A DNA stretch of 64,000 nt from positions 128,001 to 192,000 of IMG/VR virus record IMGVR_UViG_3300021254_000020, one strand, 5' to 3'. Below the pieces are notes generated by a model. That model searched no databases and was not told the origin of the DNA. It saw only the letters and a list, made by a program, of their open reading frames with translations. This DNA comes from a virus (lineage: Duplodnaviria > Caudoviricetes). This document shows, piece after piece, positions 37,036 through 49,597 of the stretch; position 1 is the stretch's first letter; each line of letters begins with the position of its first letter. A program made the position numbers and the translations under genes.

Positions 37036-37641
37036 GGAGTAGGTCATAATGACCTACTCCCTATGAGTATGATTTTATGGGTAAACCTTGTGTATATATA
37101 AAAGAGTTATGGATTGCGTTAGCTACCTTATACCGGTTATCCTCTGCTTCAAACTAGAATAGCAGTAACCCTCTTCGAGTAGCACGGAATTGTAATAAGG
37201 ATTTGGTTTATCAATTTGGCGGGTTATCAGATTGGGCTCGTTAAAAATACTACCAGGTATAAAAATAGTTTTATCAGGTTATCAGTTTAGGTACGTATAT
37301 CAATTTAACGAGTTATCAGTTTAGCCCATTTAAGCATCTTTGTATTTATGTGCTTAATTTGATTGAGGAAATCAATGTGACTCATTGTCCCCATATGAAC
37401 GCTCAGAGGGATTCGAACCCTCGTGATCTTTGCGATCGGAAGATTTTCGGTCTTCTGTGTTTAACCACTCCACCACAAGCGTTAACCATTCTGGTTATGT
37501 ATGAACAGCTTAAAAAGCTGGTGCAATCCTATTAGTCTTTTCTATTACCAAGAGGTAAGAGCATGTGGCCATAAGACATCTCGATTGCATTAGGAAAAGG
37601 CCCTAATTTGATTGAGGTTAATTCAGCCTCGTAATCCATAA
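37036..37641 (-). ncRNA. candidate long structured RNA with AAAYUGAUAA repeats and embedded tRNA
   Basis: no credible ORF; about 6 motif copies 37207-37324; 9-bp inverted repeat 37237-45/37304-12; terminator 37036-60. Confidence 0.55.
37398..37482 (-). tRNA. atypical class II (long variable arm) tRNA, anticodon GAA
   Basis: acceptor ACGCTTG/TGAGCGT, D arm GTG-GAGTGGTTAAA-CAC, anticodon arm GAAGA-CCGAAAA-TCTTC, variable arm GATC-GCAAA-GATC, T arm GAGGG-TTCGAAT-CCCTC; no encoded CCA. Confidence 0.85.
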
Positions 37642-39274: not shown

Positions 39275-41542
39275 TTACTCACATTTGCTCCAACCACAAT
39301 TACTGCAAGTCACACACTTTCCTTCAGGAATAAGTGTTTTCTTCCCGCACTCGGGACATACACGTTTAATCGTATCTTCCTCTTCCATATGAGCCTCCCC
39401 AATGTCTTGCTTCTTCATTACCAATTCAATAGCATCAGCAATAGCATTAGAGCAGGAGAGTGATACATCAAGTTCACCATTCCTACGAAGAAGCTGACAA
39501 GCAGGACATTGATTATTTCTCAGCTCATCTAGTACTCTAGTCAGTTTAACACCACTACGGAGTGATAAGGAGATCATACGAGTAATAGTGTTGATATTAG
39601 CCTGGCAACCACCGCTCGCATTAGTGAACACCTCAAAGATGTTCCCATCTTCCGTTTTATTAACTGTAACATACATAGATCTAGCACAGCTAGTACGTAC
39701 TCTCACTGTAGCACCTTCTACGTACTTAGTATTCCTACGACTAGGGGCATCGATACTATCATATGCAGGAACATATCCTTTAGGTACAGCTACCAGAGGC
39801 TCAGAGGTATCCTCATCATCCTTCTTCTTTTCTACACCAAGGATATTACCACGTTCGCATCCATCGACGAATACAGTGATACCTTTAAGCCCTTGTTTCC
39901 ATGCTTCCATATAGATCTCATAGATTTGTTCTTTAGTAGCATCATGGGGAAGATTAACAGTAGAACTGATCGCATTATCTACATACTCCTGAACTATGGC
40001 TTGTAGACGTACGCGATCCAAGTAAGGTACTTCATGAGACTCTATCAGGAACGGGAATCTCTTCTTAGCTTCTTCTACGCTAATACCTTCACAGTGATGG
40101 AATTTAAGAAGATCCTCTACACCACGAGCATATACCAAGAAGGTCTTTCCACTATCCTCCATGGAATGAGATGTACGTTCATAGGCGATCTTAAACATAG
40201 GTTCAATACCACCAGTATACTTACCAGCAAACAAGCTGATAGTACCAGTAGGAGCGATAGACAGAAGAGAACCATTACGAATACCATACTTCTTTATATC
40301 CCCATGCAGTTCAGGATAGGCTTGTATTTGAATAGACTTAAGAGTCTTATCAGCATCGAACTTCTTGAATGGTCCTTTAAGTTTAGCTAACTCAATACTA
40401 GTAATAAGAGCCTGCTTCATGAACTCATCCATTACGTCACTCATTAAGTGACGAGACTCTTCAGAACCATACTTGATTCCTAATGCTACGAAAGCATCAG
40501 CCATACCAAATATACCTAAACCAATGGAACGCCAATCATCAATAACCTGTTTGTTGAGTTCCAATGGTTGCATGTCTCTGCCGTAGTCTAATACTTCATC
40601 CAACATGCGTACTGCATAATGAACAGTATATTTCAAACGATCATAGTTGATATGAGCATGATCAGTAAACTTATCGTCTACCATTTCATAGAGATTAACC
40701 GAACCAAGATTACAAGAATTTCCTCTAGTACCAAAGTATTCGGCACATGGGTTTGATATATCTATTGTGTATTCAGGATATCCGCTCAGTAAATGAAAAC
40801 TACGCACACGCTCTATAAAAATAAGGCCAGGGTCCCCAAAACGGCGAGAGCACTCGCAGAATTCTTCGAAGAATTCTCTTGCATTGATTACGTTAGAGAT
40901 CTTTCCTGTCTCAGGAGAGTCAAAATGTAACTCAAAATCTCTATTTTCTTCTACCGCCTTCATAAATTTGTCAGTGAACTTGATACTGATATTCATAAAA
41001 GAGAGTTTCTCATTATTCTGCTTTACTCTGAGGTACTCATAGATATCTGGATGTTCGCAAGATAACCCGACCATAATAGCCGCCCTACGCCCGTTCTGTC
41101 CAATAACCTGACCTACTGTATCGAAGACATTAAGAAATGATACTGCTCCGCTGCTCTTTAGTGCTGAATTATTTACTCTTGCTCCTTTAGGACGAAGTGT
41201 ATCTATAGAAATACCAACACCTCCACCATAGGAGAAGATACGTGCCATATCCCTAGCAGTGTCAAATATAGATTCTATATTATCTTTGGGGATATTACCA
41301 AGAACATAGCAGTTGCTTGTACTTAGTTTACGTTTCCCCTTGTAGCCCGCCCCAAATAGAGTTCTACCTCCAGGTAAGAACCATGCCTTATCTAGTAGAG
41401 TATATGCATCATCCTTGATTTCATCACTAAAGATGCTTGCCAGTCTGGGAATGAACTCTTCTGGTTTCTCTCCTTCATGTAGATATTTACGAGTCATGAT
41501 TCCCATAGAGATTTCATTGTCATACCATTTCTTTTCACTCAT
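39275..41542 (-). CDS. nrdJ: class II (adenosylcobalamin-dependent) ribonucleotide reductase
   Basis: FLPGGR, SNCYV, GGGVG, RRAA, NPCAE, SCNLGS, IAPTGTIS, AISSTVN, C-terminal TSC/CxxC domain and zinc ribbon; no NrdB nearby. Confidence 0.92.
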   Translation of the reverse strand: MSEKKWYDNEISMGIMTRKYLHEGEKPEEFIPRLASIFSDEIKDDAYTLLDKAWFLPGGRTLFGAGYKGKRKLSTSNCYVLGNIPKDNIESIFDTARDMARIFSYGGGVGISIDTLRPKGARVNNSALKSSGAVSFLNVFDTVGQVIGQNGRRAAIMVGLSCEHPDIYEYLRVKQNNEKLSFMNISIKFTDKFMKAVEENRDFELHFDSPETGKISNVINAREFFEEFCECSRRFGDPGLIFIERVRSFHLLSGYPEYTIDISNPCAEYFGTRGNSCNLGSVNLYEMVDDKFTDHAHINYDRLKYTVHYAVRMLDEVLDYGRDMQPLELNKQVIDDWRSIGLGIFGMADAFVALGIKYGSEESRHLMSDVMDEFMKQALITSIELAKLKGPFKKFDADKTLKSIQIQAYPELHGDIKKYGIRNGSLLSIAPTGTISLFAGKYTGGIEPMFKIAYERTSHSMEDSGKTFLVYARGVEDLLKFHHCEGISVEEAKKRFPFLIESHEVPYLDRVRLQAIVQEYVDNAISSTVNLPHDATKEQIYEIYMEAWKQGLKGITVFVDGCERGNILGVEKKKDDEDTSEPLVAVPKGYVPAYDSIDAPSRRNTKYVEGATVRVRTSCARSMYVTVNKTEDGNIFEVFTNASGGCQANINTITRMISLSLRSGVKLTRVLDELRNNQCPACQLLRRNGELDVSLSCSNAIADAIELVMKKQDIGEAHMEEEDTIKRVCPECGKKTLIPEGKCVTCSNCGWSKCE

Positions 41543-41582: not shown

Positions 41583-41930
41583 TCATACAGTAGTTTCAGT
41601 TACTAATTTATTTATCTTATCCCATAGAGTGGGATTGTTTTCTTTAGTTACAACGGTATTAGATCCATTAGTTAGGTCAACTTCAGTTACCCTATAGCCA
41701 TGATAGAAATGTTCTTCAAAAGAACTATTGTAGGTCACGTAGAAGATATCCTCTTCATTTGAATCTTTATTCATCCACTTATCCTTTATAGTAGGATCAG
41801 TGATATGCATCATAATCAGATCTAATAGATGATCCTCAGATGTAGCATTGTGGCAGAAAATACCAGGGAGGAAGCATGATGAATCTTCCTCTTTATAAGA
41901 GTATTTGGTTATAGTATATATCTTATCCAC
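41583..41930 (-). CDS. hypothetical protein
   Basis: GGAGG RBS, GTG start. Confidence 0.65.
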   Translation of the reverse strand: MDKIYTITKYSYKEEDSSCFLPGIFCHNATSEDHLLDLIMMHITDPTIKDKWMNKDSNEEDIFYVTYNSSFEEHFYHGYRVTEVDLTNGSNTVVTKENNPTLWDKINKLVTETTV

Positions 41931-42001
41931 TTCAAAACCTCCTATATAGTGTATTAATCATCTGTTAGTGAGAAAGTATAGTTTTACTACCGCTTTATTA
42001 G

Positions 42002-42029
42002 CCTAATTGTAGGTTATGAGCCTAAAATA
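42002..42029 (+). repeat. free-standing copy of the intron-end motif
   Basis: CCTAATTGtAGGttatGAGCCTAAAATA matches 46668-46698(-) and 48226-48259(-). Confidence 0.8.
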
Positions 42030-42071
42030 AATAAAAAATAAAGCCGACCAGATATACCGGTCGGCCATACT

Positions 42072-42815
42072 TTATTTTCTCAAGGAGCGATAACGAGGTC
42101 TAAACTTACTATCTGACTCTGCATCTTCTTCAGTTATAGCAACTGTAGCGGTATGTTCAATAGTATCACCACTGCTGGTACTTGGTTTATTTTCACACTC
42201 AGCAGATTCGAGCTTATCCTGTTCCGAGAATGTATCGATCGGAGTTCCATCTGGCCCAACCATAGTGCGAGTTTCCATATCAAGTGGGAAATGCGGAGGC
42301 TCTGCATCACACTTCGGAATATCATTGCTATCAATCGGTGTAATCGGTGTAGAATATCTAACAGGAGTATGTTTAGGCTTCTGCTCCTCTTTATGACAGT
42401 CACAGTGATCATTACCACAGTTACATTTCTTCTTGGGGACAGTAGAGAATGCTGATGGGAAAAAGGAATGAGTCAGTGCATAGCTTAGCCTGTATATATA
42501 CTCTGAGAACTGAGCTTCGCTTACTAAATCTTTTATACGAACTTTTCGATATGCTATAGAACTAATATGTATTTTCTCAAAGATAGAGACTTTATATACA
42601 CTATGGTCTGACCCTACTATGTAAGCTACTGCATCTGTCTCTCTCTTATAGTAATCTGTAGGAACTAAGAACAAGTCTTTTTTATCAGTAATAGCCGATT
42701 TGACTAATGCGGCAAAACGTTGAGTGATATCAACCAATCCATCAAATTCCATAATAACAGGAGCTGATTCTTTGGTTGTATCAATCCTCTGGATACTGAT
42801 AATAATATCAAGCAT
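42072..42815 (-). CDS. hypothetical protein with Cys/His cluster and disordered tail
   Basis: CNCGNDHCDCH. Confidence 0.7.
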   Translation of the reverse strand: MLDIIISIQRIDTTKESAPVIMEFDGLVDITQRFAALVKSAITDKKDLFLVPTDYYKRETDAVAYIVGSDHSVYKVSIFEKIHISSIAYRKVRIKDLVSEAQFSEYIYRLSYALTHSFFPSAFSTVPKKKCNCGNDHCDCHKEEQKPKHTPVRYSTPITPIDSNDIPKCDAEPPHFPLDMETRTMVGPDGTPIDTFSEQDKLESAECENKPSTSSGDTIEHTATVAITEEDAESDSKFRPRYRSLRK

Positions 42816-45637: not shown

Positions 45638-45878
45638 ACAATCCTTTTAATATTGGTCTTCTTATTCTCTCTTCCTCTTATTTGGCTTAGAATAGAAAAC
45701 CCAATGAAATATTATACTTAGTATAATCACGCATAAAATGGAACTTACAATATTTCCTATTAGTATCAAGTCATCAAGCGCTATTGTTATTACCTCCTTC
45801 TATATAGAATATGTGGCTATCCCCATACCATTATTATAGTATATAATAAAGTATAAGTTTAGCCACATATCCACACTA

Positions 45879-46114: not shown

Positions 46115-46654
46115 ATATGAATAGGTAGAGACCATGATATTATCTCATCTCTTTCCCCTCATTCGAACGCAGCAAGCGACTTTCATCGCACTACGCTTTC
46201 CATCGAGTATTATCCCGACTAGAGACCATTCCTCCATTCCCGTTACAGGAACTTCTTAGGTTCGATCTCCGCTTTTCAGCATAGGTTAAGATGCTTATCT
46301 CCATATGGTTTCGTCATCAATCTAAATCGACCTATACCTTTCTTTCGTTCAGATAGACCTATCATTACATACATATCCTTAGGTGCCTACTTTATCTATA
46401 TATACCTAGATAGTACCTGTAATACTATATGGGTGTTCTCAACTGCCACCTTACTAACCCACAATACATATAGATTTTAATAGTAGATTCGTGTCCCTCA
46501 CCATAGATATCTTATTGACTCCCGGTTTGTTCAACCGACTTTACCGAGCTACTAACCCTGATCTTTACAATCAACGCTAGTCGGAGATTAGAGGAGATAC
46601 TTCTAGGCGTTACCCTATCATTTTATCTCTCGGTCTACCCACACAAAATCGCAC
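46115..46654 (-). mobile_element. ORF-less group II intron (IIB-like), 540 nt
   Basis: 5' GTGCG; EBS1 GGCAGT (46447-42) pairs exon ATTGCC; domain V AGCGTAGTGCGAT-GAAA-GTCGCTTGCTGCGTT; domain VI with bulged A 46122, 8 nt from terminal AT; removal restores frame. Confidence 0.92.
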
Positions 46655-46670
46655 GGCAATCTCCATCATA
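46655..46670 (-). CDS. RNA polymerase beta' 16-nt micro-exon (YDGDC)
   Basis: TAT GAT GGA GAT TGC C supplies the missing part of the ADYDGD catalytic motif. Confidence 0.88.
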
Positions 46671-46716
46671 TTTTAGGCTCACGCGCCGCAATTAGGAATT
46701 TAATGCGACACGATTT

Positions 46717-47830
46717 ATGAACGTACATTACTAAGACTACAGTATTATTATAAACACATCATAATCTAAGGTTGTTATTACCCTTTTCGGTAAACCCTCT
46801 ATATAATTCAGGATAGTTCTTGGTTATATTTTTAAAGGTTCTTCCAGTTCTTATAAAGCTCAAACTAGTTATGAACTTCTTATCATATGGAACTCCAAGA
46901 GCATTGGCTATCTGCATAGAATCCCTTCCAGCTACCATCATCTGGCATATTCTATCAACCGTAGAACCATCCCAAGTGTATCCCGATATATCATAATCCT
47001 TAGATATAGATTTCCATCGTTTTCCTGTTCTAATATCAGAAACCAGAGCAGCAAAATTCATATTATATGGAACTCCAACAATCTTAGCTATATCTGGTGA
47101 TTCCATACCTTGAGTAAGACATTGACAAATCGTATGAATCATCTTATATTTTTCAGCATTTTTGTTTACTGATACTATATGATAATTCTTTGCAATATCT
47201 TTCCAAGCAGTACCATTTCTGATATTGCTAATTAGAACTATCCATCGTCTATCATAAGGTACACCAAATTTTTCTGCTACTTGTTTAGAACTAATATTTG
47301 GATCCTCTAGCATTTGACAAATAGCATGCTTCATCTCTAATGGGAAATTAAAGATATGATCTCTATTTACATCATCGCTCAAAGAATACAACACATTATT
47401 CTGATAATCGGTCCACATAAGATTATCGAGTTTATTATGATATTTTACCTCATCTTTATGATGAACTAACTGACCATAATATGGATCCGATGTATCAGTA
47501 AGAAAAGTAATGGCTACCATTCTATGAACAAGCATCATAGCATCTTCTAATCTGCATCTAAGATATCCTTCCGGTAAAGATACTGGGTATATTTTCATCT
47601 GAGTAACCCTATCATATACGTTTCCGTAATTACTAACCAGATATCTCGGATTTAGTGGGAATATCCTAAATTCCTCATTAAGATAATATCCTAAAGTAAG
47701 AGCTCCATTAGAATAATCACTGGCTTTGTATTTATCTTGATTTTCTGCACCTGGTATAAATTCTTCCATTATATCACCTCCTTTACTATATGATTATAAA
47801 TTAACTGTAGTCTTAGTAATGTACGTTCAT
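46717..47830. repeat. 27-bp perfect inverted repeat looping out the HNH ORF
   Basis: ATGAACGTACATTACTAAGACTACAGT 46717-43 and reverse complement 47804-30. Confidence 0.95.
46759..47769 (-). CDS. intron-encoded HNH homing endonuclease with three C-terminal HTH-like repeats
   Basis: YLVSNYG (NUMOD4-like), VHRMVA.TF, VHHKDE...N..DNL.W; 3x ICQ...IA...GVPY......S.IR.G..W/F. Confidence 0.9.
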   Translation of the reverse strand: MEEFIPGAENQDKYKASDYSNGALTLGYYLNEEFRIFPLNPRYLVSNYGNVYDRVTQMKIYPVSLPEGYLRCRLEDAMMLVHRMVAITFLTDTSDPYYGQLVHHKDEVKYHNKLDNLMWTDYQNNVLYSLSDDVNRDHIFNFPLEMKHAICQMLEDPNISSKQVAEKFGVPYDRRWIVLISNIRNGTAWKDIAKNYHIVSVNKNAEKYKMIHTICQCLTQGMESPDIAKIVGVPYNMNFAALVSDIRTGKRWKSISKDYDISGYTWDGSTVDRICQMMVAGRDSMQIANALGVPYDKKFITSLSFIRTGRTFKNITKNYPELYRGFTEKGNNNLRL

Positions 47831-48259
47831 CAACAATTATCTAACCTTTCGGCTACCATAGACTATATCAGTCCCCCAGCATTACCTGGTAGGGTGCTAG
47901 CACTTCGCTACTAGGATCGTCAATCCGTTCGCTACAGGGAGCTGATCCCCTTAGTCGTTGAACCCCTTTCGAGGATGCTGATTGCCGATTTACTTCTATG
48001 CCCTTAGCACAGTCTATCTCTCCCTAGAAGTTGGGTATTCTACAATAGATCTGCTTTTATTTCAGCTTAGGCTATCTTTAGGATTTGTTTCTACTTTCGT
48101 AGCATGCCTACTATATAGACGATGCACCTAAAGCTTTACGATGTTCCAGCAGTTCACTAGCTCTCACTCACATATTACTATATGAGCGGACCATGATTTA
48201 GAAATTGTCTAAATCGCCCTTTTTTGTAATTTAGGCTCGCGCCTTAACAAAATTAGGGG

Positions 48260-49597
48260 GTCAGCCGCAAGTCCACTGAGGACGAATTGATCCAATGAGA
48301 GAACCGCACTGTCTGTATTGACTCCGACTACCCTCTTCCATACTATGGATTCGTAATGGATAGTAGGATTGCGGTTAATCAATACATGGATCTTATCCAT
48401 CTTAATCAGGTTGTTGAGGATATCTAGTACCCTCTGATCAAGCTGCAGTGTAGCATAATACCATTTCTTATATGCCTCAGCATATGTAATATTATAGCTA
48501 CTCTGTATGATATTGATCAATACCTGTTCTAAGAGCAATACGAGACCAGTATAGGGTAACATAACTTCGTCAGACCTCAGTTTACTATCCGGCACAATGA
48601 TAGACCGTTCAGAGAAAGCAGTACGTCCAGATATAGTAGAACGCATTATACCTCTCTTATCTGCTAATATGCGGATAATCTCATCAGAGAGTTCACTTAG
48701 CTTAACCTGCATATCCCAGAGAATCTGATTCTGTAGTTTGGGATTTCTATAGATAGAGAGAGTATCATTATTGAGTTGAGCTCCTAATGATGCTAAGATA
48801 TTAAAGGTAGCATTGGTTTTCTCGAAAGTAAACCGCTTACCTTCTACCTTAGCAATACGAAGCTGGGTGGTATAGATAGGGATAGAATGAGAGAATACAC
48901 AATCTCTATGCTGCATAATGAGATCGTATACATCCTTCTTATTTTTTCTTTTCTTTAAGAAGTATGCCAGTATCTCATCAAACTTCTCATAAAAACCCAT
49001 CATACCAAGGCTCTCATATTTAGAGTCTAATTTACTCTTCTTCTTATATCTACGAGCATTCTTTCTCTTAAAGATTTTTCTATCATATGAACTCATGGGT
49101 TTACCATCAGCATCGAGTTCGATAGCTGGTTCTAATATAGACTCCAAGTTATCTTTTCCGATGATGGAGATGAGTTCTACATAGATAGCAGGATTGATTA
49201 TATGATATTGATCCTTTAAATGGATATATCCAAAGTAGGTGAAATCATCACCTACTAATTTAGCGGGAGTTCCACAATAAGGACAGTAGAAGTTAGGATG
49301 GTCCATCACAGAATTAAATGCTCCTTGCAGATAGCCACAAGCACATTTGTATCTGTGAGAGAATGCTGCTTCATCTCCAAGCTGTCTACCAAACTTAGTA
49401 GAGAAGATAGATGTGTCACTCTTCAAGGATTTTTGAAGAGGTTGCTTTGAATCGATAATGAATGCTTGCCCAACACTCATATCTTTCTCAAACTCATTAT
49501 CAAGATTGAGTATAGACAGTTTAACGAAATAATCATATTCATTATCTCTAGGATAATGAATATTGAGTTTCACGTCTTTCAGGCTATTCTCATCCAT
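48260..49597 (-). CDS. RNA polymerase beta' N-terminal subunit (non-virion type), exon 1
   Basis: CACG...CPYC zinc site, FGYIHL, KRGIMR...GR..FSERSII, INRNPTIH, ends GLAAD; spliced product 529 aa. Confidence 0.92.

Follow-up and report, generated by a model that had tools for sequence, protein, structure and literature searches.

A free-standing nested palindrome in a gut jumbo phage genome as an apparent paralogue of both terminal elements of a group I intron

A free-standing 28-nt element, termed site A, was analysed in the window, i.e., the stretch of 64,000 nt comprising bases 128001-192000 of the 266-kb virus record of a gut jumbo phage. Judged by sequence, site A is a true paralogue of both terminal elements (sites B and C) of a group I intron located ~5 kb away and not an intron by-product. 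The explanation tentatively preferred here is that of a low-copy, REP-like nested palindrome, which may have been copied into tolerant non-coding places and taken up at both intron ends. The intron and the three sites are as follows:

42002-42029, + strand: site A, free-standing bipartite nested-palindrome element, recognised from block matches, simulations and orthologues.
46671-48259, − strand: group I intron in the gene of the non-virion RNA polymerase β′ N-terminal subunit, recognised from its R and S core elements and an empty site.
46669-46696, − strand: site B, 3′-terminal intron copy, with exact block matches, identical in L095 and L096.
48227-48257, − strand: site C, copy 3 nt inside the 5′ end of the group I intron, with a 12-nt spacer, found by a match to the bipartite pattern.

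By its RNA polymerase gene, the phage was placed among AR9/PBS1, phiR1-37 and the staphylococcal jumbo phages. The genome has a GC content of ~35%, and the − strand carries almost all genes. Megablast of a 7-kb region against GenBank phages returned no match, and scanning the virus-contig collection with three neighbouring proteins and a two-sequence profile yielded no relatives; the loci of relatives used for comparison were obtained solely from protein look-ups in metagenome assemblies and from one metagenome match. Intron-end repeats of this kind were not found to be described in the literature searched.

The 28 bases at 42002-42029 (+) matched the earlier quotation, and the 8-nt and 12-nt blocks that the initial annotation had reported as shared with the right intron end were found exactly and at equal spacing. 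With both blocks set apart by the same 8-nt gap, A and B are identical at 22 of 28 positions. The 8-mer of site A occurs in four exact copies in the window, one of them at 46689-46696 (−), which is not unusual given 2.4 expected copies; a perfect second copy of the 12-mer is located at 46669-46680 (−), and one deviating by a single base at 48227-48238 (−). Site A is laid out as block 1, a variable spacer of 9 nt constituting the 5′ half of a hairpin, and block 2, and is an imperfect palindrome in the range of 20-40 nt situated in extragenic DNA. A, B and C share CCTAATT as block 1 and, as block 2, GAGCCTAAA followed by either A or T plus TA; the spacer between the blocks varies from 9 to 12 nt in length and also in content.

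The single blocks are unremarkable, while their combination is not. A bipartite pattern defined from B and C alone (block 1, 6-14 nt, block 2) was found at exactly three sites on both strands of the 266-kb genome, compared to ~0.002 sites expected from a base composition calculation. Simulated genomes served as the control for this genome-wide motif search, a type of search that had been proposed initially; no site occurred in any of 60 first-order Markov genomes. A best match of 22/28 to the intron-end 28-mer was reached in one out of 150 simulated genomes. Allowing up to two mismatches, the pattern returned six sites versus 2.4 expected; weaker members are, therefore, not callable by statistics alone.

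The inner hairpin of site A comprises 6 bp including one G·T pair. Folding of the + strand at site A gave −10.4 kcal/mol (z = −1.85), and that of the − strand a z of −0.2. The hairpin, described initially as kept, is present in seven of the eight members of the family, where it takes either of two registers, and one orthologue (L100) has lost it; in the 3′ intron copy (B), the hairpin competes with a stronger 7-bp stem, P9.2. The outer 8-bp stem that had been noted at 41992-99/42037-44 does exist, but it is incidental: it consists of the T-tract of a terminator paired with an A-rich run and decays in relatives, in which it is not retained. Site A is also antisense to its neighbours, as stated before, but the strand is weak as an argument because several members of the family are nearly palindromes and are matched on either strand.

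The looser copies suggested at 37602-30 and 51288-302 had to be discarded, given that at least four mismatches are needed to match them, which is chance level. In addition, 37602-30 is not regarded as a family copy since it is one arm of a 14-nt direct repeat flanking a tRNA-like gene; this exact repeat (CCTCAATCAAATTA, at 37604-37617 and 37355-37368 (−)) brackets the tRNA-like gene at 37397-37482. A family profile was built from eight copies, and two weaker members were matched by it:

L007:7965-7992: weaker member D, just after a terminator.
L013:4608-4636 (genome 215608-215636), − strand: weaker member E, directly after a terminator and between convergent genes.

The copy number in the 266-kb genome is, hence, three exact plus two weaker copies. 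Member E closely resembles the L100 orthologue of A (22/28). Member D begins a ~380-nt ORF-free stretch (L007:7640-8010, −; genome 46640-47010) downstream of a primase-like gene; this stretch has its own terminator at its end and folds modestly better than shuffled sequences (z = −1.85), and neither copy D nor the stretch had a match in Rfam.

Site A is surrounded by the following features:

42072-42815, − strand: 247-aa gene upstream of A, non-homologous to the L088 gene at the equivalent position.
42042-42066, − strand: intrinsic terminator of the upstream gene, with a 10-bp stem containing seven G-C pairs and a T-run.
41955-41966, − strand: AACA-N6-TA word, putative promoter of the operon of the small gene and the ribonucleotide reductase (RNR) gene, conforming with the AR9 late promoter consensus.
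41583-41930, − strand: 115-aa gene downstream of A (the small gene), without a Pfam family, orthologous in element-carrying relatives.
39275-41542, − strand: RNR gene (PF02867) after the small gene, 66-72% identical to the L088 gene.

On the gene strand, A thus follows a terminator and precedes the likely promoter of the small-gene/RNR operon. The T-tract of the terminator runs into the 3′ block of site A, and the terminator stem is kept in L088 with changes on both of its sides. The AACA-N6-TA word, which corresponds to the consensus of the late promoters of AR9 used by the non-virion RNA polymerase (PMC7598289), lies 36 nt ahead of the start codon and is the best-conserved block of the spacer. 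Since the word is only 2-fold enriched upstream of gene starts, its assignment as a promoter is kept putative. The small protein is 35% identical to its L088 counterpart (E 2e-23), while the upstream gene is unrelated in L088, which places site A at a mosaic boundary of conserved and variable DNA. The RNR gene in the window is without an intein; inteins are present in RNR genes of relatives at L088:14844-17174 and L094:19693-21614 (Pfam Intein_splicing; LAGLIDADG in one of them).

A group I catalytic core (P3-P8, R/S elements) was absent around site A. An exact R element (≤1 mismatch allowed) with a matching S element was found only at 47.8-48.0 kb of the window, and another exact S match at 58.2 kb was without an R partner. 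No Rfam family was detected near site A.

The claim that the motif is an independent unit and not intron sequence alone was upheld by the comparison of relatives. In the near-identical strains L083 and L084, which are without the group I intron so that the catalytic codons lead straight into a group II intron, site A is identical base for base. The more distant L088/L089 (β′ ~68% identical, RNR 66-72%, small protein 35%) also are without the group I intron and carry a diverged copy of A in the syntenic order terminator, element, AACA-N6-TA word, small gene and RNR gene. Further syntenic copies of A were found in L100/L101 and L099, the small proteins of which are 74% and 65% identical, respectively. 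The group I intron is also present in L095 and L096, where B and C are unchanged; L096 yielded no copy of A, and the L095 contig ends before the A locus. The search of relatives for empty sites, as proposed initially, was successful in part: an exact empty site of the group I intron was obtained from L083, but none for site A.

Between this phage and L100, ~28% of the positions have changed in the element plus the adjoining 20 nt, compared to ~6% in the terminator and promoter/leader. This faster drift of the element relative to its flanks, together with the broken hairpin of the L100 orthologue, implies weak constraint on A, as far as can be judged from four orthologous free copies. The orthologues of A show one to three differences per block, even though the blocks are identical in A, B and C, which counts against a reading as a repeat; the identical blocks in A, B and C fit a sequence-reading factor as well as ancestral retention. 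Identity of the L088 copy is higher with B (23/30) than with A (19/30), indicating that B resembles an older form of the free element. The blocks that this phage has in common with the outgroup L088 are likely the ancestral ones. We conclude that site A, by all appearances, is an old, vertically inherited component of the phage backbone that is under weak constraint and present whether or not the intron is.

The β′ N-terminal subunit gene, which hosts the intron, is in three pieces and includes the following features:

46759-47769, − strand: intron ORF encoding a 336-aa HNH-type homing endonuclease with three helix-turn-helix-like repeats.
46655-46670, − strand: 16-nt micro-exon encoding YDGDC of the catalytic loop, recognised from the AR9 homologue and the intron-less allele.
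46115-46654, − strand: ORF-less group II intron directly after the micro-exon (RF02004, 91 bits; RF00029, 43 bits).

Exon 1 ends at 48260 with LAAD codons, and the joined β′ product reads AADYDGDCLNIK, in agreement with DYDGDVLNII of AR9 and with the uninterrupted allele of the sister strain. The group II intron was present in all close relatives regardless of the presence of the group I intron, and exon 3 then completes the gene. The Rfam group I model did not match the intron at 46671-48259; its guide sequence (48189-48197) pairs with both exon ends. The intron ORF is held in a loop closed by a 22-bp stem and gave only sub-threshold Pfam matches (HTH_7 and GerE), while relatives carry HNH_3. 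Further introns elsewhere in the 266-kb genome were not found with Rfam.

Of the 28 nt of site B, 26 are the 3′-terminal bases of the group I intron and two belong to the micro-exon. In the predicted fold, its block 1 forms the P9.2 loop (7-bp stem), the spacer the 3′ strand of P9.2, and block 2 the single-stranded 3′ tail. Site C is one arm of a branched P1 extension, a hairpin with a GCGA tetraloop; the first 78 nt of the intron fold into this branched P1 with −22.7 kcal/mol (z = −3.1), and the exon end pairs with the guide sequence. B and C, hence, occupy structurally different places of the ribozyme, so that a single RNA role common to both does not account for their similarity.

Near-identical strains differ in whether they carry the group I intron, and its exact ends follow from the empty site (L083:11330-11350). 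The insertion is preceded by C and has A as its last base, so that neither junction shows its customary nucleotide, which is U at the 5′ junction and G at the 3′ terminus of the intron. To our knowledge, a terminal guanosine at the 3′ end of group I introns is a rule held to be nearly universal. Alternative splice junctions restoring the canonical U and G were rejected because each of them, when checked against the empty site, disrupts the reading frame or the catalytic Asp triad. In the related intron of L103 (L103:2200-2760), an A likewise precedes the 3′ exon; in L086 and L097, the introns of which are without a B-like element, this base is G. To within 2-3 nt, the inserted DNA begins and ends where C and B have their outer edges, a finding that speaks against the repeat reading; this coincidence and the A in place of the terminal G hint that B, at least, may have a role. 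The A instead of G ahead of the 3′ exon in both B-bearing introns, which likewise hints at a role for B, amounts effectively to a single evolutionary event.

Related introns differ in their elements. The L103 intron at the same β′ site (β′ 87% identical) has a C-like and a B-like element, the L086 intron at the β′ site has the C-like (5′) element alone, and the L097 intron has no element at either end; the L102 intron is without the 5′ element, and its 3′ end is outside the contig. Homologous introns, hence, have both elements, one or none, and function without the element. Two side observations were made on these loci. The nrdD gene of L086 (18909-19437) is split by a group I intron with a perfect 11-bp hairpin, related to the element, in its 3′ region, and two tandem group I introns occur in the catalytic-loop region at L097:6860-7560, where a 12-nt micro-exon between them encodes FDGD.

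The element was compared with several known systems. REP/BIME sequences are extragenic palindromes of bacteria, present in tens to hundreds of copies and mobilised by RAYT Y1 transposases. Like these, the element is a short, imperfect, non-coding palindrome that occurs beside terminators in several copies and forms a hairpin; unlike these, it has 3-5 copies, two of them inside an intron, and resides in a phage. No match to the RAYT Y1 transposase family (PF01797) was obtained in the 266-kb genome, with control genomes responding. In AT-rich organelle genomes, mobile GC clusters and other small palindromes colonise introns and spacers. The element resembles them in being a GC-cored hairpin in a genome of 35% GC, placed in spacers and peripheral group I loops and patchily distributed among homologous introns, but it differs in that no target-site duplication was seen, copies are far fewer and its flanking blocks show sequence conservation. 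PeSL (promoter-early stem-loop) cassettes are known from T4-type phages and share with the element a stem-loop at the boundary of conserved and variable genes, the gene upstream of A being replaced in L088; unlike PeSLs, the element is without the early-promoter-like word (29 copies) and is not repeated at many gene boundaries.

An IStron is a group I intron fused to an IS605-type element. As in IS200/IS605 elements and IStrons, similar, asymmetric subterminal hairpins are located at both ends around a group I ribozyme, with the same layout in L103, but TnpA/TnpB are absent, the ORF encodes an HNH homing endonuclease, and the insertion is in the usual conserved codon of the catalytic loop. The introns of the AR9/PBS1 RNA polymerase are similar in that an HNH-bearing group I intron is inserted in the same gene at nearly the same codon; in the AR9 record, no matching terminal repeats were seen.

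According to the preferred explanation, site A would be an old solo copy of a short, nested, imperfect palindrome with AT-rich outer arms around a GC-cored hairpin and two conserved blocks. Such hairpin-prone palindromes may have been copied via recombination or template switching into sites tolerating insertion; copies are located in non-coding gaps immediately behind terminators, in the P1 loop of this intron and in its P9.2/3′ tail. Two copies (B and C) would later have been built into the peripheral ribozyme structure of this intron lineage, and site A today probably has little or no sequence-specific function. Against this reading, the three strong and two weak copies are far below classical REP or MITE families, and neither a target-site duplication nor an empty site for A nor a transposase was found. 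Of the roles considered for A in the initial annotation, a mobile mini-element or a protein or recombinase site is compatible with the present data. The remaining proposal, a trans-acting RNA, was graded weak, with no promoter-like or terminator-like signal for a + strand transcript at A; the underlying scan revealed neither a sigma-70-like promoter nor a + strand terminator, signals of phage polymerases being outside its reach. An early-promoter role for the element was not supported, as the over-represented AT-rich word (29 copies) is unrelated and the element has at most five copies. This word (TATATACTATA; ~1 copy expected genome-wide), occurring, for instance, at 45840-45860 (−) of the window, is probably an early promoter core.

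Among the alternatives, it is possible, although unlikely, that the copies are a shared recognition site, where one phage-encoded factor binds the element as duplex DNA, extruded hairpin or RNA. Site A would then be native upstream of the RNR operon, and the intron would have gained two copies to recruit the same factor, for instance, for holding the intron ends together or defining the unusual 3′ splice site. Such a site would agree with the conservation residing in sequence blocks, beyond pairing, next to a variable spacer, with the nested inverted-repeat layout, which suits a dimeric or modular binder, with the missing terminal G in both introns having a B-like element and with the three helix-turn-helix-like repeats of the intron ORF. 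However, orthologous free copies drift faster than their flanks, one of them having lost the hairpin, homologous introns without elements exist, and no candidate binder was found; the presence of A in strains without the intron ORF implies that this protein is not the reason for A. A farther-reaching possibility is a protein- or RNA-recognition module at both intron ends that would define splice sites without a terminal G, the free site A acting as decoy, operator or antisense partner and coupling β′ splicing to the transcription of nucleotide metabolism; this we regard as decidedly improbable. If the elements were necessary for splicing without the terminal guanosine, the finding would matter much more, touching a near-universal group I rule. 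It is improbable, too, that C and B delimit, on the left and on the right, respectively, an IS200/IS605-like or IStron-like unit carrying ribozyme and endonuclease, with A, D and E as solo ends. Subterminal hairpins are indeed found at both ends, at distances of 15 nt (left) and 5 nt (right) from the boundary (9 and 7 nt in L103), and the repeat edges match the boundaries of the inserted DNA that the empty site reveals; but neither a Y1 transposase nor a TnpB-like gene was found in the 266-kb genome, A stays at one locus across diverged phages, and related introns in the same codons without these ends carry HNH genes, which suggests ordinary homing. The known insertion locus of the intron is a single one, the catalytic-loop codon.

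A regulatory role of A as antisense is considered highly improbable. Read-through transcripts of the gene strand would carry the complement of A and pair over 12 + 8 bp with the 3′ splice site of the intron, less well with C, whereby β′ splicing would be tied to RNR read-through. All neighbouring genes are on the strand yielding this complement, and the duplex with the B region was predicted at −43 kcal/mol compared to −17.8 ± 3.5 kcal/mol for shuffled partners, but this energy merely restates the sequence similarity. Moreover, the position of A after a strong terminator and before the likely promoter implies transcription by read-through only, A is unchanged in strains without the target intron, and orthologues of A exist in intron-less phages. 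Chance resemblance in an AT-rich genome is extremely unlikely. While the 8-mer alone is not unusual, exact 12-mer pairs are, arithmetically, common in 64 kb, and 67 relaxed-pattern matches across a collection of 2.9 million virus contigs look like noise, the excess of exact sites and the rarity of a 22/28 match in the simulations contradict chance, as do the location of two of the three sites at both ends of one intron and the greater proximity of the diverged syntenic L088 copy to B than to A. Least credible of all is a tRNA relic, a reading based on the resemblance of the complement of A to the anticodon stem-loop of tRNA-Met, with a 4-5 bp stem and a CUCAUAA-type loop, and on virus contig L078, where a near-identical stretch occurs in a tRNA-like sequence within a tRNA array. 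The L078 match was, however, largely forced by the search pattern; ARAGORN and Rfam (RF00005) revealed no tRNA at A even at E up to 10, acceptor, D and T arms are missing, and the anticodon-like loop is absent from the orthologues, B and C.

If the preferred explanation of a low-copy dispersed palindrome holds true, the element would illustrate, on a small scale, that jumbo phages can harbour dispersed palindromic repeats, and would show a mobile intron building resident repeat copies into its own periphery. Strains that differ in the intron but not in the free copy constitute a ready natural experiment. In that case, the repeat would predate the arrival of the intron in the lineage, and its recognition would aid the annotation of jumbo phages and the dating of intron gain.
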